DNA of 64,000 nt from Candidatus Magasanikiibacteriota bacterium (GCA_041674805.1 JBAYVA010000001.1:326612-390611); one strand, 5' to 3'. Shown: positions 6,302 to 63,234, counted from the first letter of the stretch. The notes: generated from the sequence alone by a model not told the origin. Made by a program: numbers and translations.

Positions 6302-7441
6302 CTATTTTTGAGCTTCTGTATCTTCTACCACCTCTTCTGAAACTTCTAGATTTTCCAAATTATCTACATTATCTACTTGTGGATCAGCAAATAATTCTGC
6401 AAAAGGATTATGAATGTTTAAAAGAACTTCAATTTTAGCAGACATCAATTTTTCATTCATAAAAGTACGGAAATTGTTCATATTAGCATCTTCAATTCCA
6501 CTAAATGGGAAAAGAATATGTCTAGCTTTAACTTGTTCTACATCTTCACCTGTTGTTTCATCTTTTTCTACTTTTTTATCAGTAACTTGTAAAATATGAT
6601 AACCAAAAGTAGTTTTTACCAAATCTTCGTTCAACTCACCTTTTTTCAAAGAAAAAGCCACTTCTTCAAATTCAGGTACCATCATACCACGACTAAACCA
6701 ACCTAAATCACCACCTTGTGTAGCAGTACCATCAGTACCATATTCAGCTGCCATTTTTGCAAAATCTTCTCCTTCTTTGATAGCTTTCAAAATTTCCAAA
6801 GCTTGCATACGAACTGTTTCTTCATCATTATTTTCAATAGGATTTTCTTCTACATATTTAGCAGCTAACTTCTTTTCTAATTCTGTTGGATAAACTATTT
6901 TTGAAACAAATTCATCCAAAGTCCAACCATATCTAGCCATTATTTCTGTTTCAGCTTCTTCTTTACTAGCAAAACTTGGCAAAATTTGTTCATCTACAAT
7001 CTTTTGTAAATCTTCATCACTTACAGAAACTTTCATTTCTTTGGCAACTTCTTCTACTAATGTATTTATCAATAAACGACTCAAAACAAAATCTGATTTT
7101 TCTTCTTCTTTTGGAGCTACTTCACCAGAAGTATCTGTAGCATAAAATTTTTCCATTGCTTGAATATTATCAATATAATCACTATATTTTATTTTTTGAT
7201 TATTGATACTAGCTACAGGCATAGCAAAAAAATCAGCTGTTTTCAAAACTACTTCCCCTCTTGATAAATTTTTGACTTGACTAAAAGTTACGGCATAAAA
7301 AATACCGACACCAATAATAAGAGCGGCAACAAAACCACCACCTATAATAATTAAAGGATTTTTTTTATTTGGTGTTTCTACAGATTGGACAGGCTGTGTT
7401 GACAACTCCTCTTGTGGAGTCATTTTTTGTTCTTCTGACAT
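6302..7441 (-). CDS. membrane-anchored PpiC/parvulin-type peptidyl-prolyl cis-trans isomerase (PrsA/SurA-like)
   Basis: N-terminal TM helix. C-terminal parvulin signature GGDLGWFSRGMMVPEFEEVAFSLKKGE…TTFGYHILQV. Confidence 0.75.
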   Translation of the reverse strand: MSEEQKMTPQEELSTQPVQSVETPNKKNPLIIIGGGFVAALIIGVGIFYAVTFSQVKNLSRGEVVLKTADFFAMPVASINNQKIKYSDYIDNIQAMEKFYATDTSGEVAPKEEEKSDFVLSRLLINTLVEEVAKEMKVSVSDEDLQKIVDEQILPSFASKEEAETEIMARYGWTLDEFVSKIVYPTELEKKLAAKYVEENPIENNDEETVRMQALEILKAIKEGEDFAKMAAEYGTDGTATQGGDLGWFSRGMMVPEFEEVAFSLKKGELNEDLVKTTFGYHILQVTDKKVEKDETTGEDVEQVKARHILFPFSGIEDANMNNFRTFMNEKLMSAKIEVLLNIHNPFAELFADPQVDNVDNLENLEVSEEVVEDTEAQK

Positions 7442-56653: not shown

Positions 56654-58162
56654 TTATCTTTTTATAATTTTCTTGTCAAATTTTTTTATATAAAAAACAA
56701 GTAACAAGTATAAAGTAATCATGAGCCACAAAGGAATAGACAAATCAATCGTCGCAAAATGCAAATTTGAAAAAAAAGTTACTACCACCACAATATACTT
56801 CATTGCAACAAAAGACAACCAAGACAACACCTCAGCCACAGGTGCAAAAATAAAACTGAAAACTAAAACAAAAAAACCACTAAACATTATCCAAGGTAAA
56901 ATCCATAAAATCAAAATATTTACCACAGGCGCGACAATAGACAAACGATTGAATTGATAAAGTATTAGTGGCAAAGTAGCTACAATCGCTGAAATAGTGG
57001 TTAATAAAGATGCTTTGATACCAAAAAATTCTGGAATTTTTTGAAATTTACGCTCCAAAATTGGTGACAAATAAACAAGACCCAAAGTAGAAATAAAAGA
57101 CAATTGAAAACCAGCATCCCAAATCAAAACATAAGGATTTTGTAAAGCCATAATAAAAGCTGTCAAAATCAACACATTGGCAATATGAGCTTTTCGACCA
57201 ATTTGTTTTGTGAGTAAAACAATAATTCCCATAATCCCCGCTCTCACTACTGAAGCACTTGCACCTGCAAAAATTACAAAAGTAATTATACCAAAAACAA
57301 TCAAATAAAAAGCTTTCTTACGTGGGATATACAAATAAGTACAAAGTGAAATCAAAATAGAAGAAACAATAGTAATATTATAACCAGAAATAGCCACAAT
57401 ATGAGTGACACCTGTCCGACTAAATAATTCATTCAATTCTCCCAGTCCACCACGATAACCATACAAAAGTCCAGCCATAAAACTAGCATAAGGTTCGTGC
57501 CAAATAATATTTATTTTACTAGCGATGCTACTTTTAAAAGCAAATATTTTGGAAAAAAACCACTTACCTTGATTGATAGCTATTCTTTCTATACTACTAG
57601 GCATACAAACCACAAAAACATCATAACGAGCCAAATATTTGTCATAACGAAAAGATTCTACTGGTTCTGGTTTTTGCAAAGTACAGGCTACTTTCAATTT
57701 GTCACCGTAATTATAACGTGGATACAAACTATGTTTTAAATACACTTTACCTTTTACTTCTGTTTTATTTATAAAAAAATTTTTATTATTTTGATCATAG
57801 ATATTTTCTACAGATAAAATATATCTTACTCCATCTAGTCTAATATCTGGTTCTGCACTTACCACAGCTTCTACTATTTTATTTTCCCCTAAATAAAATA
57901 GTAAATTATTTTGATTATTATTAGGTATAGTAACCAGATAACGCCAAATACCTAAAGAAAAAAACAAACAACACAATAAAACAAAACGCGTTTTTTTATT
58001 TTGCCAAAAAATAACTAACAAAAATAATAAAACAAAAAAAATTAGATACAAGTAAAATTTATCAAAATGCGAATCATAAATAGATTGGAAAGCAACAGAC
58101 AATAAAAAAGAAAAACAAAACATAAAAAATGTTTTGCTTTTTGAATTCAATAATTTAGACAT
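56654..58162 (-). CDS. comEC: ComEC/Rec2 DNA-uptake channel (membrane competence domain, lacking the C-terminal MBL domain)
   Basis: N-terminal OB/DUF4131-like region followed by a polytopic 'Competence' domain (…SRTGVTHIVAISGYNITIVSSIL…). Confidence 0.7.
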   Translation of the reverse strand: MSKLLNSKSKTFFMFCFSFLLSVAFQSIYDSHFDKFYLYLIFFVLLFLLVIFWQNKKTRFVLLCCLFFSLGIWRYLVTIPNNNQNNLLFYLGENKIVEAVVSAEPDIRLDGVRYILSVENIYDQNNKNFFINKTEVKGKVYLKHSLYPRYNYGDKLKVACTLQKPEPVESFRYDKYLARYDVFVVCMPSSIERIAINQGKWFFSKIFAFKSSIASKINIIWHEPYASFMAGLLYGYRGGLGELNELFSRTGVTHIVAISGYNITIVSSILISLCTYLYIPRKKAFYLIVFGIITFVIFAGASASVVRAGIMGIIVLLTKQIGRKAHIANVLILTAFIMALQNPYVLIWDAGFQLSFISTLGLVYLSPILERKFQKIPEFFGIKASLLTTISAIVATLPLILYQFNRLSIVAPVVNILILWILPWIMFSGFFVLVFSFIFAPVAEVLSWLSFVAMKYIVVVVTFFSNLHFATIDLSIPLWLMITLYLLLVFYIKKFDKKIIKR

Positions 58163-58198: not shown

Positions 58199-59626
58199 CT
58201 AAAAATCTTTGGTATAAACTTCATCTCCACTGTCTGTAATAATTTTACGATTACCCAAATTACCATTATTTTCAAGATCTTCCACAGGTAAACTAGCAAA
58301 AACTTCTAGAGGTAAATCAGATGGTGGTTCTGCCGCTTTAGTAGTTGCTTTTTGAACCAAAGGAGTTTTGACATGAGACATAGGAAAATGCCAGAGTGTG
58401 GCTAATTCTTCAATATTTAACACAAACCATTTTGAAGCATAACCAATTTTTCTTTTACGATAAGCCTTTATAAACTCAGTTTGTTTTTGTCCTTTTTTCT
58501 TTGGGTTGCGAATACCACCAGTAGAAGATTTTTCAACAATAGAATTGGAAGTCGGACTATTGAACTGATTAATAGCACCTTTGAGAGCGTTGACTCCTCT
58601 TTCTGTTTTGAATACTTCTTTTCTCGCTACATAGACACCACGCATTTTAGTTTTGAAACCAATTTTAGAAATTTTCTTTTCCATATCTTCCACCAATTTC
58701 ATCTGACCTGGAGTCAAATATTTCAATTGGTTTTTTTCACTACTACCAGAGTCAGCGTCTCCACCACTACTTCTCTCAGTACCAACTACTTGAGCATTTA
58801 TTTCTTCAAAACTTTTCCAAACTTCTTTGGTCAAAACATTGTCAGTAATAAAAGAAAATGGACCACCTTTTTTAGCACCACCACTTTCTCCAATCATTTC
58901 TTTTATTTTACTAATAGTTTTTTCTTTCCAACTATTATCAATTGGTTCTACTATAATCTGAAACCACATTTGTTCACCAGGTCCAATACGAGTAAAACTT
59001 TCCAAAAATGTTCCCATTGGATCTTTCAAAACTGTATCTTTGGAAATATTATGTTCAAATTCACGATAACTACGCAAAGGAAAAGCATAATCTTCTGACA
59101 AACTAAAATCACCAATCCAAGCGTCATATTCTTTGTTTGGAAACTGTTGTGGTACAAAATTGACATAATCCTCTACTTCTGTGATTTCTGCATCTGGATA
59201 TTGTGCATACACAGAAGCTTCTACTAAGTCACGGAATTCTTCTTCAGTCCAAACCAAAAATTGGATATAACCTTCTATACTAACAATTTCCATACTATAC
59301 CATTTTTGTTTGTAACCTTTGCGAAACTTGTCATAAAAACCAGCTTTATCAAAAGCACCCGATAGATGAGCAAACATTTGTTCTACAGCCAAAGGTGTTT
59401 GCACATTTTCTGGAGGTATATCTATAGCCAACAAAACAGATTTCCACTTATTGGTATTTTTGGTATTTTGAATATAATCAGCATAAAAATTTACCACCAC
59501 AAAAGCAAGCAACCATACAAAAAACAACCAACCAAATATAGCATAAAATTCTAATATGACTGTACCTGTAGCTTGGTTGAAAAAATCAATAATAGTGTTC
59601 AATACCAAATTTATATAGTATTCCAT
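58199..59626 (-). CDS. hypothetical membrane protein (N-terminal 2-TM hairpin + large soluble domain)
   Basis: 475 aa with no recognisable catalytic motif. Confidence 0.4.
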   Translation of the reverse strand: MEYYINLVLNTIIDFFNQATGTVILEFYAIFGWLFFVWLLAFVVVNFYADYIQNTKNTNKWKSVLLAIDIPPENVQTPLAVEQMFAHLSGAFDKAGFYDKFRKGYKQKWYSMEIVSIEGYIQFLVWTEEEFRDLVEASVYAQYPDAEITEVEDYVNFVPQQFPNKEYDAWIGDFSLSEDYAFPLRSYREFEHNISKDTVLKDPMGTFLESFTRIGPGEQMWFQIIVEPIDNSWKEKTISKIKEMIGESGGAKKGGPFSFITDNVLTKEVWKSFEEINAQVVGTERSSGGDADSGSSEKNQLKYLTPGQMKLVEDMEKKISKIGFKTKMRGVYVARKEVFKTERGVNALKGAINQFNSPTSNSIVEKSSTGGIRNPKKKGQKQTEFIKAYRKRKIGYASKWFVLNIEELATLWHFPMSHVKTPLVQKATTKAAEPPSDLPLEVFASLPVEDLENNGNLGNRKIITDSGDEVYTKDF

Positions 59627-59628
59627 AA

Positions 59629-59790
59629 TTAAACTTTCAATAATTTAAAAACTATTGGAAACAAAACTAATACTCCCAAAAATAATAAATACCAACCATT
59701 GCTTCCAGCAATATAGCCAGCAAAATAAACCAAAAACAATATAATGACAATCAAAACTGTAGTCAAAATATGTAAAAAACTATCACTCAT
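59629..59790 (-). CDS. possible small membrane protein (53 aa)
   Basis: MSDSFLHILTTVLIVIILFLVYFAGYIAGS… with the start at 59788-59790, downstream of the secF terminator. The longer track ORF (59629-60015) would overlap secF and is discounted. Confidence 0.3.
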   Translation of the reverse strand: MSDSFLHILTTVLIVIILFLVYFAGYIAGSNGWYLLFLGVLVLFPIVFKLLKV

Positions 59791-59829
59791 ATTAATTAGA
59801 TTAAATATGTAAGTATTATAACACAAAAC

Positions 59830-59857
59830 AAAAATCCCCGAAACTACGGGGATTTGA
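59830..59857 (-). terminator. Rho-independent terminator downstream of secF
   Basis: aaatccccg-aaacta-cggggattt stem with a T-run on the minus strand. Confidence 0.6.
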
Positions 59858-59875
59858 AACTGTGAACAAATGATT

Positions 59876-60880
59876 TTACTTCTTAGAAATCTTTTGCCAG
59901 AAAACCAACAAAGGACTAGCAATAAAGATAGAAGAATAAGTACCAAAAGAGATACCAATGATAAGTGCCAAAACAAAATAATGAATAGTACTACCACCAA
60001 AAAAGAATAACGCAATTAATACTAATAAAGTCGTGAAAGAAGTATTGATAGAACGAGAAATTGTCTCATTGACACCTTTGTTAACAATATTTTCAAAATC
60101 ATCATAACCATATTTGATCAAATTTTCACGAATTCTGTCAAATACGATAATAGTATCATTGACTGAATAACCCAAAATAGTAAGAAGAGCAACCACAAAA
60201 GGTATATCTACCTCTACACCCATATATTTGCCAAGAAAGGCAAAAACACCCATAGTAATAAATACATCGTGGATAAGAGCCACTACAGCGGTTACACCGT
60301 ATTTCCAAGAATGTATTGGCTTTGAAACTTTTCTAAAAGCATAAGTAATATACAAAACAATGGCAATAACTACAGCGATACCAGCTTCAAAAGTTCTACT
60401 TTTCATTTGTGAACTTACTGATGAACCAATTACTTCCAAACGTTCTTCTATCAATCTATTTTCTGGTTTTTCAGCATCAAACTTATCTTCTACTGCTACA
60501 AAATTAGGATCCTTTACAGCTTCTGGATCAATCATTACATCTACCATTATGTTTTCAAATTCAGAACGTAAATTTGCCAAAATTTCTTGATGTTCATCTT
60601 CTGAAATAAATCTCATTTTCAAAATATAAGCATTTTCACCAGTTGGTTGTACCAAAACACTACCATAAGTACCATCAGCAAATTGAGCTTGCATACTTTC
60701 CAAATCAGGTCTTTCACTAGTAAAACTTATTTCCATAAGTGAACCACCAGTAAAATCAATACCTGGTTTCAAACCAAATGTAATAACTGCAAACAAACTT
60801 ACTAGCAATAATACTCCCGAGAAAATAAAGAATATATTTCTATTTTTTACGATATTGAGCATATTTTTATTCTTTTTCAT
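59876..60880 (-). CDS. secF: protein translocase subunit SecF
   Basis: SecF N-terminal TM helix plus periplasmic domain and the conserved 5-TM C-terminal SecD/SecF region. Overlaps secD by 14 nt. Confidence 0.85.
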   Translation of the reverse strand: MKKNKNMLNIVKNRNIFFIFSGVLLLVSLFAVITFGLKPGIDFTGGSLMEISFTSERPDLESMQAQFADGTYGSVLVQPTGENAYILKMRFISEDEHQEILANLRSEFENIMVDVMIDPEAVKDPNFVAVEDKFDAEKPENRLIEERLEVIGSSVSSQMKSRTFEAGIAVVIAIVLYITYAFRKVSKPIHSWKYGVTAVVALIHDVFITMGVFAFLGKYMGVEVDIPFVVALLTILGYSVNDTIIVFDRIRENLIKYGYDDFENIVNKGVNETISRSINTSFTTLLVLIALFFFGGSTIHYFVLALIIGISFGTYSSIFIASPLLVFWQKISKK

Positions 60881-62912
60881 TATTAATAAAAGTACCTAGA
60901 AACAACCAACCACCATCACGCTTTTTGAACCAAGGTACTACAAATCTAAGCATCACACGAGTAATGATAATCGCACTAAACATAGACAAAGATACACCAA
61001 GGAAAAGAGTAATAGCAAAACCTTTGACAAAACTTGTACCAAACCAAATCAACAATAAACAAGTAATCAAAGTTGACATATTACCATCAAAAATAGATGA
61101 CCACGCACGTTTGAAACCTTCTTCTACTGCTGCTTTTAAACTTTTACCACTTCTCAATTCTTCTTTTAGACGTTCAAAAATAAGAACATTAGCATCAACT
61201 GCCATACCAATAGAAAGTATGAAACCAGCAATACCAGCCAAAGTCAACGTAACTCCTATCAACTTGAAAATAGCCAAAGTCAACGTAATATAAAGAGATA
61301 AAGCAATGACAGACAACAAACCAGGCAATCTATAATAAAACAACATAAATAACATGACCAAAATCACACCAACAATACCAGCATACAAACTAGAAGAAAC
61401 AGATCTATCACCTAGACTTGCTCCGACTGTTTGTTGAGAAATAAGATTTACAGGTACTGGCAAAGCACCAGCATTCAATCTTTGTGAAAGCAATCTAGCT
61501 TCTTGTAAGGTAAAACTACCAGTAATAACAGCACGTCCATCAGTAATAGCAACTTGTACAACTGGAGCACTAATTATTTCATTGTCCAAAAATATTGCAA
61601 CTTGTTGACCAACATTACGTTTGGTAATATCTGCAAAAAAATCTTTACCTTCACTATCAAAATTCAAAGCTACTTGAATAGCACCAGTTTGACCATCACT
61701 AACTACTTCAGAACGTTCTAGATTTTTACCAGATAAACTAGTATTTTTCCAAGGTTCTTGTGGAGGCAAAATATCTGTAGAAGATTTGGTATTTACCAAA
61801 ATTCTCCACATTTCGTATTCTTTGGTAGTTCTTTCATCTTTTTTGAAAATGACATGATAACCAAATTGAGTTTCTACTGGTCCAATGATTTGACCTTTTT
61901 CTGCAGGAAATATAGCATTTTCAAATTCTGTTACCATCATACCAGCAGAAAACCAGCCAAGTTCACCACTGTTTTGTGCTACACTTGGATCTGTAGAATT
62001 AGTTTTGGCTAATTCAGCAAAATTATCAGCAGTCGCTTGATCATAAATTTCTTGAGCTTTTGCCAAAGCTTGTTCTTTGGTAAAATTTTCTGTATTACAA
62101 TTGGTAGCACCAGTATAACAAATCAAAATATGACTTGCTTCAACTTCTTTTTGTCCTTCACGTTCCTCACCTCTTTTGACGATATTGAAACCTTCAGTAT
62201 TTTCAATCAAAGTTTTACTGACTTCATTTACTTTGGCAGTCTTTGCCCAATCGTATAATTCAGTATAAACAGAACTACTACCAACATAATCTAAATATCC
62301 ACCATTGTTTTTACTATTTTCATCCTCAGAACTTTCACGTGCAATATCTTCAAAAACACTATTTTTTACTTTTGTTTTTTTCAATAAATCATTTGCTTTT
62401 ATTTTTGCTTCTTTATTATAAGTATCTAATTCTTTTTGTTCATCAGCGGTCAATTCACGAGCTGGTTCATTGTTTATTTCTTTGAATTCCAAAATAGGTG
62501 TAGTACCAATCATCGCAATAGCTTGATCTACATCAGAGACACCTGGTAATTCAATAATAATTCTATGTGCATTTCCTACTTCTGTTGTTTGTACTTGTGC
62601 TTCAGAAACACCAAGACCATTTATTCTTTTTTCAATTACATCACGCACACCTTCTACAGCAGCACCTTCTTCACCAGCTTGAATATTACTTGTGTCAGCT
62701 TCATAAACCAAATGAGCACCACCTTGCAAATCAAGACCTAAACGAAATTGTTTTTCAGGAAAATGAGGCAAACCTAATTTGACAGTAGTATTCACCCAAT
62801 CAATACCTTTGTTAAAAAATTGTGGACTAACAAATACACTAGATATGAATAAAAGTGCAATGATTCCAAAAATTCCCCATCTTAATTTGCCACGAATATT
62901 TGCTTTTGTCAT
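60867..62912 (-). CDS. secD: protein translocase subunit SecD with an embedded PpiC/parvulin-type PPIase domain
   Basis: SecD N-terminal TM helix, P1-domain sequences and C-terminal 5-TM region (…LSIGMAVDANVLIFERLKEE…). The periplasmic domain contains a complete parvulin signature: ASHILI…NSGELGWFSAGMMVTEFENAIFPAEKGQIIGPVETQFGYHVIFK. Confidence 0.85.
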   Translation of the reverse strand: MTKANIRGKLRWGIFGIIALLFISSVFVSPQFFNKGIDWVNTTVKLGLPHFPEKQFRLGLDLQGGAHLVYEADTSNIQAGEEGAAVEGVRDVIEKRINGLGVSEAQVQTTEVGNAHRIIIELPGVSDVDQAIAMIGTTPILEFKEINNEPARELTADEQKELDTYNKEAKIKANDLLKKTKVKNSVFEDIARESSEDENSKNNGGYLDYVGSSSVYTELYDWAKTAKVNEVSKTLIENTEGFNIVKRGEEREGQKEVEASHILICYTGATNCNTENFTKEQALAKAQEIYDQATADNFAELAKTNSTDPSVAQNSGELGWFSAGMMVTEFENAIFPAEKGQIIGPVETQFGYHVIFKKDERTTKEYEMWRILVNTKSSTDILPPQEPWKNTSLSGKNLERSEVVSDGQTGAIQVALNFDSEGKDFFADITKRNVGQQVAIFLDNEIISAPVVQVAITDGRAVITGSFTLQEARLLSQRLNAGALPVPVNLISQQTVGASLGDRSVSSSLYAGIVGVILVMLFMLFYYRLPGLLSVIALSLYITLTLAIFKLIGVTLTLAGIAGFILSIGMAVDANVLIFERLKEELRSGKSLKAAVEEGFKRAWSSIFDGNMSTLITCLLLIWFGTSFVKGFAITLFLGVSLSMFSAIIITRVMLRFVVPWFKKRDGGWLFLGTFINNEKE

Positions 62913-63234
62913 AAACTTATTTTTTTCAACAAAATCGTTGAATTATTATTTTTTAAATACTTAAAACTTCTCTACTAAAATAATAGTAGTCAATTGGTCA
63001 ATATTGTATCTATTTACCAATAAAAAGTCAAGCATACTTAGTAACAATAATAGCTTGACAAGTTATATAGCTCTATTTAGCAATACGCTTTCAAATTGAT
63101 TATTATTTCAATCTAAAATTTACAACTCCAAATACCAACTTCTAAATTTAAAATAATTTATATTTAAAGTTTTAAATATTAAAAAAACAACACCAAATAT
63201 AAGTGTTGTTGCAAAAAATAAAAAAGATTTTTGT

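Follow-up and report, generated by a model that had tools for sequence, protein, structure and literature searches.

Parvulin domains in the P1 region of SecD from Patescibacteria and their possible role at the translocon exit

The handover of exported polypeptides from the Sec channel to folding helpers is still a matter of debate. The P1 head of SecD engages precursors and turns in response to the proton-motive force, and in E. coli the membrane-anchored parvulin factor PpiD, in complex with YfgM, contacts SecY at the translocon exit and improves the release of substrates (PMC8082313, PMC9643414). SurA is reported to interact with the holotranslocon (PMC9987972). In the genome-reduced Mycoplasma pneumoniae, which has no outer membrane, PrsA-like parvulin proteins (Mdp444/436/489) form a dome on SecDF-SecYEG, where a substrate density touches the active PPIC domain, the only one with catalytic residues (bioRxiv 10.1101/2025.04.25.650208; 10.1101/2024.09.05.611430). 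These known links, to which PrsA of Gram-positives can be added alongside PpiD-YfgM, the contact of SurA with the holotranslocon and the Mycoplasma dome of 2025-26, are all non-covalent and have mostly been inferred from crosslinks and low-resolution maps. Here, we describe a secD gene at positions 60867-62912 (minus strand) of a stretch of 64,000 nucleotides, hereafter the window, from Candidatus Magasanikiibacteriota bacterium (GCA_041674805.1 JBAYVA010000001.1:326612-390611), whose product carries parvulin domains inside its extracytoplasmic P1 region. The source genome belongs to the Patescibacteria, or candidate phyla radiation, and has a GC content of 31.7%. Full-text literature searches, with most subscription journals outside their coverage, found neither a SecD-parvulin fusion nor a permuted parvulin described.

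A SecD with parvulins at its base-to-head junction

The 681-residue protein is encoded in a single reading frame free of stop codons and frameshifts, parvulins included, and is 100% identical to the NCBI entry ‘protein translocase subunit SecD [Candidatus Magasanikbacteria bacterium]’. It scores 395.9 bits against TIGR01129 secD (NCBIfam cut-off 244.4), and its Pfam domains follow one another as Sec_GG (residues 54-74), SecD_1st (87-147), Rotamase_3 (243-356), SecDF_P1_head (389-486) and SecD_SecF_C (489-656). PF21760, PF22599 and PF02355 each exceed their gathering scores, and in the whole protein Rotamase_3 reaches E 7.3e-42 (143 bits; cut-off 22.5) and Rotamase E 2.9e-37; the Pfam and NCBIfam matches of this SecD lie far outside chance. 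The original prediction had read a parvulin fold in the P1 region of a genuine SecD from the strings SHIL (260-263), GELGWFSAGMMVTEFENAIF (316-335) and FGYHVIFK (350-357), all of which are present, and the profile searches it proposed bear this out, since both domain sets exceed their cut-offs within one open reading frame (ORF). That the region might merely be a divergent SecD P1 lacking a parvulin fold is refuted by the Pfam match (E 7e-42) together with matches to solved parvulin folds (TM-score, TMt, 0.76-0.83). The protein and its partner SecF are laid out in the window as follows, with TM denoting transmembrane segments.

60867..62912, minus strand: secD ORF, 681 residues (TIGR01129, 395.9 bits; Pfam domain order)
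62829..62879, minus strand: TM1, residues ~12-28 (sequence; AlphaFold helix 2-28)
62472..62753, minus strand: N-terminal part of the P1 base, residues 54-147 (Sec_GG PF07549 and SecD_1st PF21760; T. thermophilus SecDF 26-120)
62163..62465, minus strand: core of ParvA, residues ~150-250, a degenerate parvulin lacking an N-terminal β1, with helix α1 as its first element
61839..62147, minus strand: ParvB, residues ~256-358, a parvulin of canonical order with a conserved active site
61791..61817, minus strand: strand β1′, residues 366-374 ‘YEMWRILVN’, β1-like and located after ParvB; putative completion of the ParvA sheet
61455..61748, minus strand: P1 head, residues 389-486 (PF22599 E 1.9e-29, profile positions 17-114; T. 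thermophilus SecDF from 148)
60933..61448, minus strand: TM2-TM6 bundle, residues 489-660 (PF02355; alignment to T. thermophilus SecDF)
59876..60880, minus strand: secF, 334 residues (TIGR00966, 276 bits), overlapping secD by 14 nt

The protein belongs to the SecD family and shows all of its testable defining features. Pfam order, AlphaFold secondary structure and Foldseek agree on the SecD topology of TM1, an extracytoplasmic P1 base and head, and five TM helices. TM1 is preceded by K3/R7/K9/R11, and the positive-inside rule together with homology to SecDF structures suggests that the N-terminus lies inside and the P1 region outside. The same parts make up canonical SecD and SecDF proteins (T. 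thermophilus 3AQP/5YHF, D. radiodurans 5XAN, E. coli 5MG3), and the best PDB matches of the full-length model are the SecDF structures 5xan, 5xap and 3aqp, the I form being closest. Also shared are the TM4 aspartate, with D573 aligned to T. thermophilus D340 and invariant in 87 homologues, and the ‘GYSxND...DRIRE’ and ‘SR..TS’ motifs of the adjacent SecF, which aligns to the SecF half of the D. radiodurans and T. thermophilus SecDF proteins. Tsukazaki and co-workers are reported to have found, in 2011, that the TM4 aspartate of the proton path and the conserved charged residues of SecF are essential. With its P1 base, P1 head and TM bundle intact, the window protein is a functional-looking SecD and partner of the adjacent SecF, and the motor part of the pair likewise looks intact.

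What sets this SecD apart lies between base and head, where solved SecDF structures contain no parvulin. T. thermophilus SecDF residues 26-120 and 148-437 align with residues 50-149 and 380-670 of the window protein, so that ~230 residues (150-380), entering behind the last strand of the P1 base (141-146, ‘ILEFKE’), take the place of ~27. As the PF22599 head is present (E 1.9e-29) and aligns with that of T. thermophilus, the parvulins were added to the P1 head and do not stand in its stead; of the two arrangements that had been envisaged, replacement is ruled out and augmentation is what is found.

One complete parvulin had been predicted, which is correct for ParvB but not as a count, because a second, degenerate unit had been missed. 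Taken alone, ParvB (residues 258-393) matches Rotamase_3 with E 3.9e-28 and 98.8 bits, and ParvA (residues 150-257) does so with E 4.4e-14 and 53.5 bits over profile positions 29-112 only, both against the cut-off of 22.5. In a sequence search of the PDB, the first half of the insert finds PrsA parvulins (6xd8, E 5.5e-6) and the second half SurA P2 and PrsA.

Within an alignment of 87 full-length homologues (A1; 60-81% identity), the signature catalytic residues of ParvB are conserved, as had been anticipated: H261, S306, F330 and H353 in 87/87, T348 in 83/87, and D308 as Asp in 77 and Glu in 10. The hydrophobic trio of the proline pocket (L318/M326/F330) is conserved as well, and positions 261 and 353 are both His in 171 of the 173 two-unit SecDs gathered in the survey below. 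These features indicate that the insert holds bona fide parvulin domains, with ParvB carrying both the active site and the proline pocket. ParvA, by contrast, has Asn and Arg where the histidines belong: N243 (75/87) at its β4, giving ‘GFNIVK’ instead of ‘GYHIIK’, and R370 (80/87) at the corresponding position of β1′. It retains S195/D197 and a GG motif, N203/G205 are invariant, and W222/A223 are found in at least 90%. Mean pairwise identity amounts to 0.64 for ParvB, 0.50 for ParvA and 0.73 for the P1 head, and both units are therefore under constraint.

A pair of cysteines, C265/C272 (62097-62120, minus strand), lies in the β1-α1 loop of ParvB in 87/87 sequences of A1 and in roughly 150 of the 173 two-unit SecDs, whereas the forms of Peribacteria and Gracilibacteria lack it. 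The two residues may form an extracytoplasmic disulfide that staples the loop equivalent to the substrate-specificity loop of Pin1.

Structure prediction agrees with the profile matches. The full-length AlphaFold model has a mean predicted local distance difference test score (pLDDT) of 82.7 and a predicted TM-score (pTM) of 0.45, meaning that the single domains are confident and their mutual placement uncertain, while the insert modelled alone (residues 137-400) reaches 93.1 and 0.76, respectively. In Foldseek, a single unit matches the PrsA PPIase (peptidyl-prolyl isomerase) domain 2jzv (TMt 0.82, 2.9 Å) and SurA P2 4g2p (TMt 0.82, 2.4 Å), and ParvB shows the canonical fold with TMt values of 0.76-0.83 and root-mean-square deviations (rmsd) of 2.4-3.1 Å to the PrsA, Pin1 and SurA parvulins.

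Among separate extracytoplasmic parvulins, PrsA of Bacillus, Staphylococcus and Listeria shares most with the insert: the same catalytic residues, a non-phospho-specific parvulin (TMt 0.82 between ParvB and 2jzv), and a location on the outer membrane face of a cell without an outer membrane. Yet PrsA is a separate, dimerising lipoprotein whose parvulin sits within an N/C chaperone (SurA_N-like) domain, whereas the window protein has no such chaperone domain, uses SecD as its anchor and contains a resident parvulin that appears permuted. SurA (E. coli 1M5Y) has tandem parvulins, one degenerate and one competent, as in the insert, and both align to it, in two stretches by sequence and over 213-281 columns in Foldseek. 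Their arrangement differs, however: an rmsd of ~13 Å over ~220 columns rules out a SurA-like P1-P2 arrangement, and the units of soluble SurA follow one another on flexible linkers around an N/C chaperone core, whereas ParvB appears to be nested via a β-ribbon. PpiD-YfgM is non-covalent, binds SecY, and has an inactive parvulin along with a SurA-like chaperone domain, while the window parvulins are part of SecD itself. The M. pneumoniae dome is likewise non-covalent and built from large separate lipoproteins, in contrast to the far smaller gene fusion in the P1 loop of Patescibacteria. Pfam detects no SurA_N, SurA_N_2 or SurA_N_3 in the window SecD, which stands outside the PrsA, SurA and PpiD families because it lacks a SurA_N-type chaperone domain and because its parvulins are not a separate polypeptide. 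By analogy, it probably works like these chaperones nevertheless.

Strand order of the two units

SecDs with a single parvulin reveal an unusual strand order. Behind the ‘LLEFKE’ base strand, their insert opens with α1 and continues as far as β4 ‘G[YW]H[IV][IV]’, followed by 16-35 residues, a strand ‘xH[IL]L[ILF]’, the segment ‘KTK..DI.P’ and the P1 head. The succession of β4 ‘G[YW]H..’ and ‘xH[IL]L.’ occurs in 18 of 19 single-unit SecDs, both histidines are kept in 18/19, and a HIL-type strand before β4 is found in none of the 19. Neither ParvA nor the single-unit inserts have the canonical strand order: they start with α1, and the apparent β1 comes after β4. The Pfam match of single-unit forms begins only at profile position ~8-10 (PF00639) or 27-32 (PF13616). 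A parvulin without its central β1 needs a strand from elsewhere, and the strand behind β4 is the evident candidate.

Moving this strand to the front extended the Pfam Rotamase match to start at position 1-2 and added 2-4 bits in 3/3 constructs. With our own profile hidden Markov model (HMM) of ParvB, transfer of the β1 segment raised the score by a mean of 3.25 bits, compared with a change of -0.34 when the segment was reversed as a control, and the start of the HMM was reached in 13/19 versus 1/19 cases (Wilcoxon p 1.3e-4, among related sequences). A cruder re-permutation gave no gain for single-unit SecDs with our own HMM because a long linker remained between β1 and α1, and Pfam re-permutation of the degenerate ParvA of the window yielded 54.2 versus 53.6 bits. 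Chain ends at the start of α1 and the end of β1 would lie together, and such a unit would therefore suit insertion into a loop. We infer that the resident unit, as seen in the single-unit SecDs, is a circularly permuted parvulin running from α1 to β4 and then to β1.

In the two-unit SecDs, the four strand positions 243-261-353-370 read x-H-H-x in 171/173, His occurring at the outer positions in only 2/173 (243) and 5/173 (370). The two histidines of solved parvulins hydrogen-bond to each other (PMC2678132). That 261 and 353 are kept together, and 243 and 370 lost together, points to residues 256-264 as β1 of ParvB and to 366-374 as β1 of ParvA. The latter, β1′, is the positional counterpart of the ‘xHILx’ strand that follows β4 in single-parvulin SecDs. 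Both the full-length and the insert-only model show unbroken strands of 24 residues at 241-264 and 351-374; if these pair in antiparallel fashion, residue 264 would lie opposite 351 and residue 241 opposite 374. Residue patterns and models together thus suggest that ParvA is a permuted, degenerate unit whose β4-β1′ hairpin accommodates ParvB as a nested domain and that a continuous two-stranded β-ribbon joins the two into a fairly rigid ‘lollipop’. ParvA would then be the degenerate pedestal, attached to the P1 hinge via two short linkers (147-155 and 375-387) that both leave from its side of the module, with ParvB in the distal position.

A few two-unit SecDs do carry an outer histidine—HHHH in one (‘...QGYHLLK...LSHILIK...’, A3 set), EHHH in four and HHHQ in one—and might represent an intermediate stage, with two parvulins that are still competent.

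As to the origin of ParvB, duplication of the resident unit and insertion of a foreign canonical parvulin are both conceivable. In a distance and neighbour-joining analysis of the parvulin cores, ParvA forms a long-branch cluster, and ParvB lies at 0.56 from canonical stand-alone parvulins and 0.65 from single-unit inserts, distances that favour neither route. If the permutation and nesting are true, this would be the first natural parvulin, within the literature searched, to be circularly permuted and nested, and students of protein evolution and engineering may take an interest of their own in the apparent circular permutation and domain-in-domain arrangement of a parvulin.

Distribution of the fusion and related proteins

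The fusion had been put forward as a feature of one protein; its existence stands, but it is a lineage-wide trait and not a one-off, and its apparent permutation and nesting had been missed. Rotamase and SecD Pfam domains co-occur in 120/120 of the best homologues of the window SecD and in 120/120 of the best homologues of a distant relative encoded at 63% GC (locus L019). Homologues with source names are all labelled plain ‘SecD’, and precomputed Pfam tables show both domains in them. An insert-only HMMER search of 1.84 billion cluster representatives placed ~20 SecD fusions that share this domain order within its best 150 matches (50%-identity clusters), and SecDF-fused forms of ~1,015 residues are among its matches. 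For the phylogenetic survey that had been proposed, species representatives of GTDB were scanned with an alignment spanning the junction (ParvB, linker and P1 head), and the ORFs at the best 80 loci were classed by HMMs built from A1. The following forms were found, with lineages named as in the record labels.

Two parvulins, 670-750 residues: Magasanik- and Uhrbacteria, ‘Parcubacteria group’, one Gracilibacteria
One parvulin, 556-650 residues: Falkow-, Komeili-, Buchanan- and Moranbacteria
SecDF fused with parvulin, 1,020-1,105 residues: Peribacteria, Peregrinibacteria, Gracilibacteria (L038, L050, L061, L065)
SecD with a longer insert, 783-827 residues: Peribacteria (L051, L063)
No parvulin, 460-530 residues: Saccharibacteria, Minisyncoccia

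Taking the 80 GTDB loci and the collected proteins together, 173 SecDs have two units, 19 a single unit, 8 no insert and 2 the longer insert. The fusion is widespread and conserved across many lineages of Patescibacteria, where it takes three forms: with one parvulin, with two, or as a fused SecDF. Lineages differ in insert length in discrete steps, with values of about 0, 130, 240 and 340 residues, and insert evolution has continued by accretion. The versions from Peribacteria, Peregrinibacteria and Gracilibacteria have a strongly degenerate first unit, and in L051 and L063 the two units are set apart by ~100 additional residues.

Several SecD-parvulin genes of Patescibacteria type appear under other titles—‘uncultured Gammaproteobacteria’, ‘Hyphomicrobiales’, ‘Bdellovibrionales’, ‘Bathyarchaeia archaeon’, ‘Candidatus Binatia’ and ‘Eisenbacteria’ (L001, L006, L007, L013, L019-L021, L029, L040, L046; P0294, P0306). 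Within the 80 loci surveyed, we do not take these titles to mean that Gammaproteobacteria, Bathyarchaeia or Binatia carry the fusion, the nearest named relatives of L019 being Uhrbacteria, Parcubacteria and Patescibacteria; judging from this one locus, the titles are probably mislabels of third-party-assembled metagenome-assembled genomes.

The window encodes a second parvulin protein.

6302..7441, minus strand: stand-alone, membrane-anchored SurA_N plus parvulin protein, PrsA/PpiD-like (SurA_N_2/3 and Rotamase_3, profile positions 29-116)

Its proposed kinship to the SecD insert is borne out by BLASTP (E 5e-14, 30% identity) and by a strand order shared with the single-parvulin inserts: β4 ‘GYHIL’ (282-286) precedes ‘KARHILF’ (305-311), and no β1 stands before α1. 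With ‘KARHILF’ moved to the front, the match began at HMM position 1 instead of 25 and gained 7 bits, so that this parvulin appears to be circularly permuted like the SecD inserts. The protein may have been the donor of the SecD insert or may derive from it.

In a further family of complete proteins of ~290 residues (L081 2250-3143, equivalent to P0155; P0169 and P0237), an N-terminal TM helix is joined to a P1-head-like domain (PF22599) and to a ParvB-like parvulin that is canonical and very near ParvB, the Cys pair included. The L081 gene adjoins a Trypsin_2/PG_binding gene and not secDF. The family looks like a free-standing module of P1 head and foldase; it is an independent pairing of the two modules and lends plausibility to a foldase function.

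Possible roles of the fused parvulins

We consider it reasonably likely, by analogy with the systems above, that the fused SecD is a translocon-tethered foldase in which the parvulin module binds, isomerises or holds the exported chain beside the P1 head. Driven by the proton-motive force, SecDF would swing the P1 head as it grips the polypeptide emerging from SecYEG; riding beside the head, the parvulin module would bind the same unfolded chain; ParvB is predicted to catalyse prolyl cis/trans isomerisation of the emerging chain, and ParvA and ParvB would both hold it during pulling. Secreted proteins could thereby begin to fold while being pulled out, and folding catalysis would be hard-wired to the translocon exit, as the original prediction had suggested. 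Such a SecD would achieve covalently what the PrsA lipoprotein, the SecYEG-bound PpiD-YfgM and the dome on SecDF in M. pneumoniae do as separate proteins.

A fuller scenario can be offered more tentatively, with the odds slightly against it: a circularly permuted parvulin was placed in the hinge of the P1 arm, a second, canonical parvulin was later nested in it in some lineages, and the swing of the arm delivers the chain to the isomerase. If this scenario is true, the protein is a natural Rosetta-stone fusion, which would make SecDF and parvulin foldases general functional partners. A conserved active site in the moving arm of SecD, kept across deep branches of a very large bacterial radiation, constitutes independent evolutionary evidence that SecDF and parvulins share a substrate simultaneously. 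The single chain, with a P1 region of about 440 residues, also offers a compact system for structural and biochemical study of export-coupled folding, and the fusion is a possible lineage marker and a possible adaptation of ultra-small, genome-reduced cells that rely heavily on surface and secreted proteins.

Several points weigh against the foldase. The PPIase activity of B. subtilis PrsA has been reported as dispensable in vivo. The stand-alone PrsA-like parvulin at 6302-7441 means that the fused parvulin is not the only extracytoplasmic one of this genome. With a full-length pTM of 0.45, it is uncertain where the module lies with respect to the P1 head and the SecY exit, and the nested topology is read from DSSP strings and residue patterns. 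The counted sequences are phylogenetically related, so that counts and p-values overstate their independence. Finally, the histidines of parvulins may be mainly structural, in which case their conservation is no proof of catalysis (PMC2678132), and the parvulin of PpiD is catalytically inactive and still improves the release of translocated proteins (PMC8082313).

These last two points also favour the strongest rival, namely that the insert is a holdase or anti-backsliding arm, an ATP-independent chaperone surface that widens the grip of the P1 head and, like PpiD and SurA P1, has little or no need of catalysis, which would be weak or dispensable. ParvA speaks for it too: it has lost both histidines and is conserved all the same (identity 0.50; N203/G205, W222/A223), which implies that a non-catalytic role has been selected in at least one unit. 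ParvB, however, has all of its catalytic and proline-pocket residues in practically every one of the 173 two-unit SecDs, and 18/19 single-unit forms keep both histidines; such retention is typical of active parvulins such as PrsA and SurA P2, unlike PpiD or SurA P1. We therefore regard a pure holdase as unlikely, though as a serious alternative to the foldase.

Considerably less probable is a mechanical or regulatory role, in which a rigid two-domain rod, placed in one of the two connections between base and head, tunes or gates the P1 swing, or contacts the cell wall, the S-layer, YidC or the stand-alone PrsA-like protein, and takes no direct part in folding. It would fit the insertion exactly at the base-to-head junction, the rigidity of the insert-only model (pTM 0.76) and the stepwise insert lengths of ~0, 130, 240 and 340 residues. 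A spacer has no reason, however, to retain a whole active site and proline pocket across deep lineages, and the ~290-residue protein of P1 head and parvulin joins both substrate-handling modules without a motor. An artefact—mis-assembly, a gene-call chimera or a domain that is not a parvulin—was considered since the source is a metagenome-assembled genome, found no support and can practically be dismissed, given the uninterrupted architecture in hundreds of independent NCBI, JGI, ENA and Logan assemblies, the Pfam E of 7e-42 and the matches to solved parvulin folds (TMt 0.76-0.83, 2.4-3.1 Å).

Around the secD-secF pair, consensus scans suggest two candidate signals.

63003..63031, minus strand: promoter-like TTGACT-17-TACAAT upstream of secD (consensus scan only; weak evidence)
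59832..59855, minus strand: terminator-like hairpin and T-run directly after the secF stop (consensus scan)

Terminator-like sites number 5 in the scanned region versus 1.8 expected. A hydrophobic ORF of 128 residues at 59629-60015 (minus strand), which as listed overlaps the 3′ end of secF, has no Pfam match, and neither does a downstream ORF of 475 residues with an N-terminal membrane segment (58199-59626, minus strand). Beyond these two lies ComEC, at 56654-58162.

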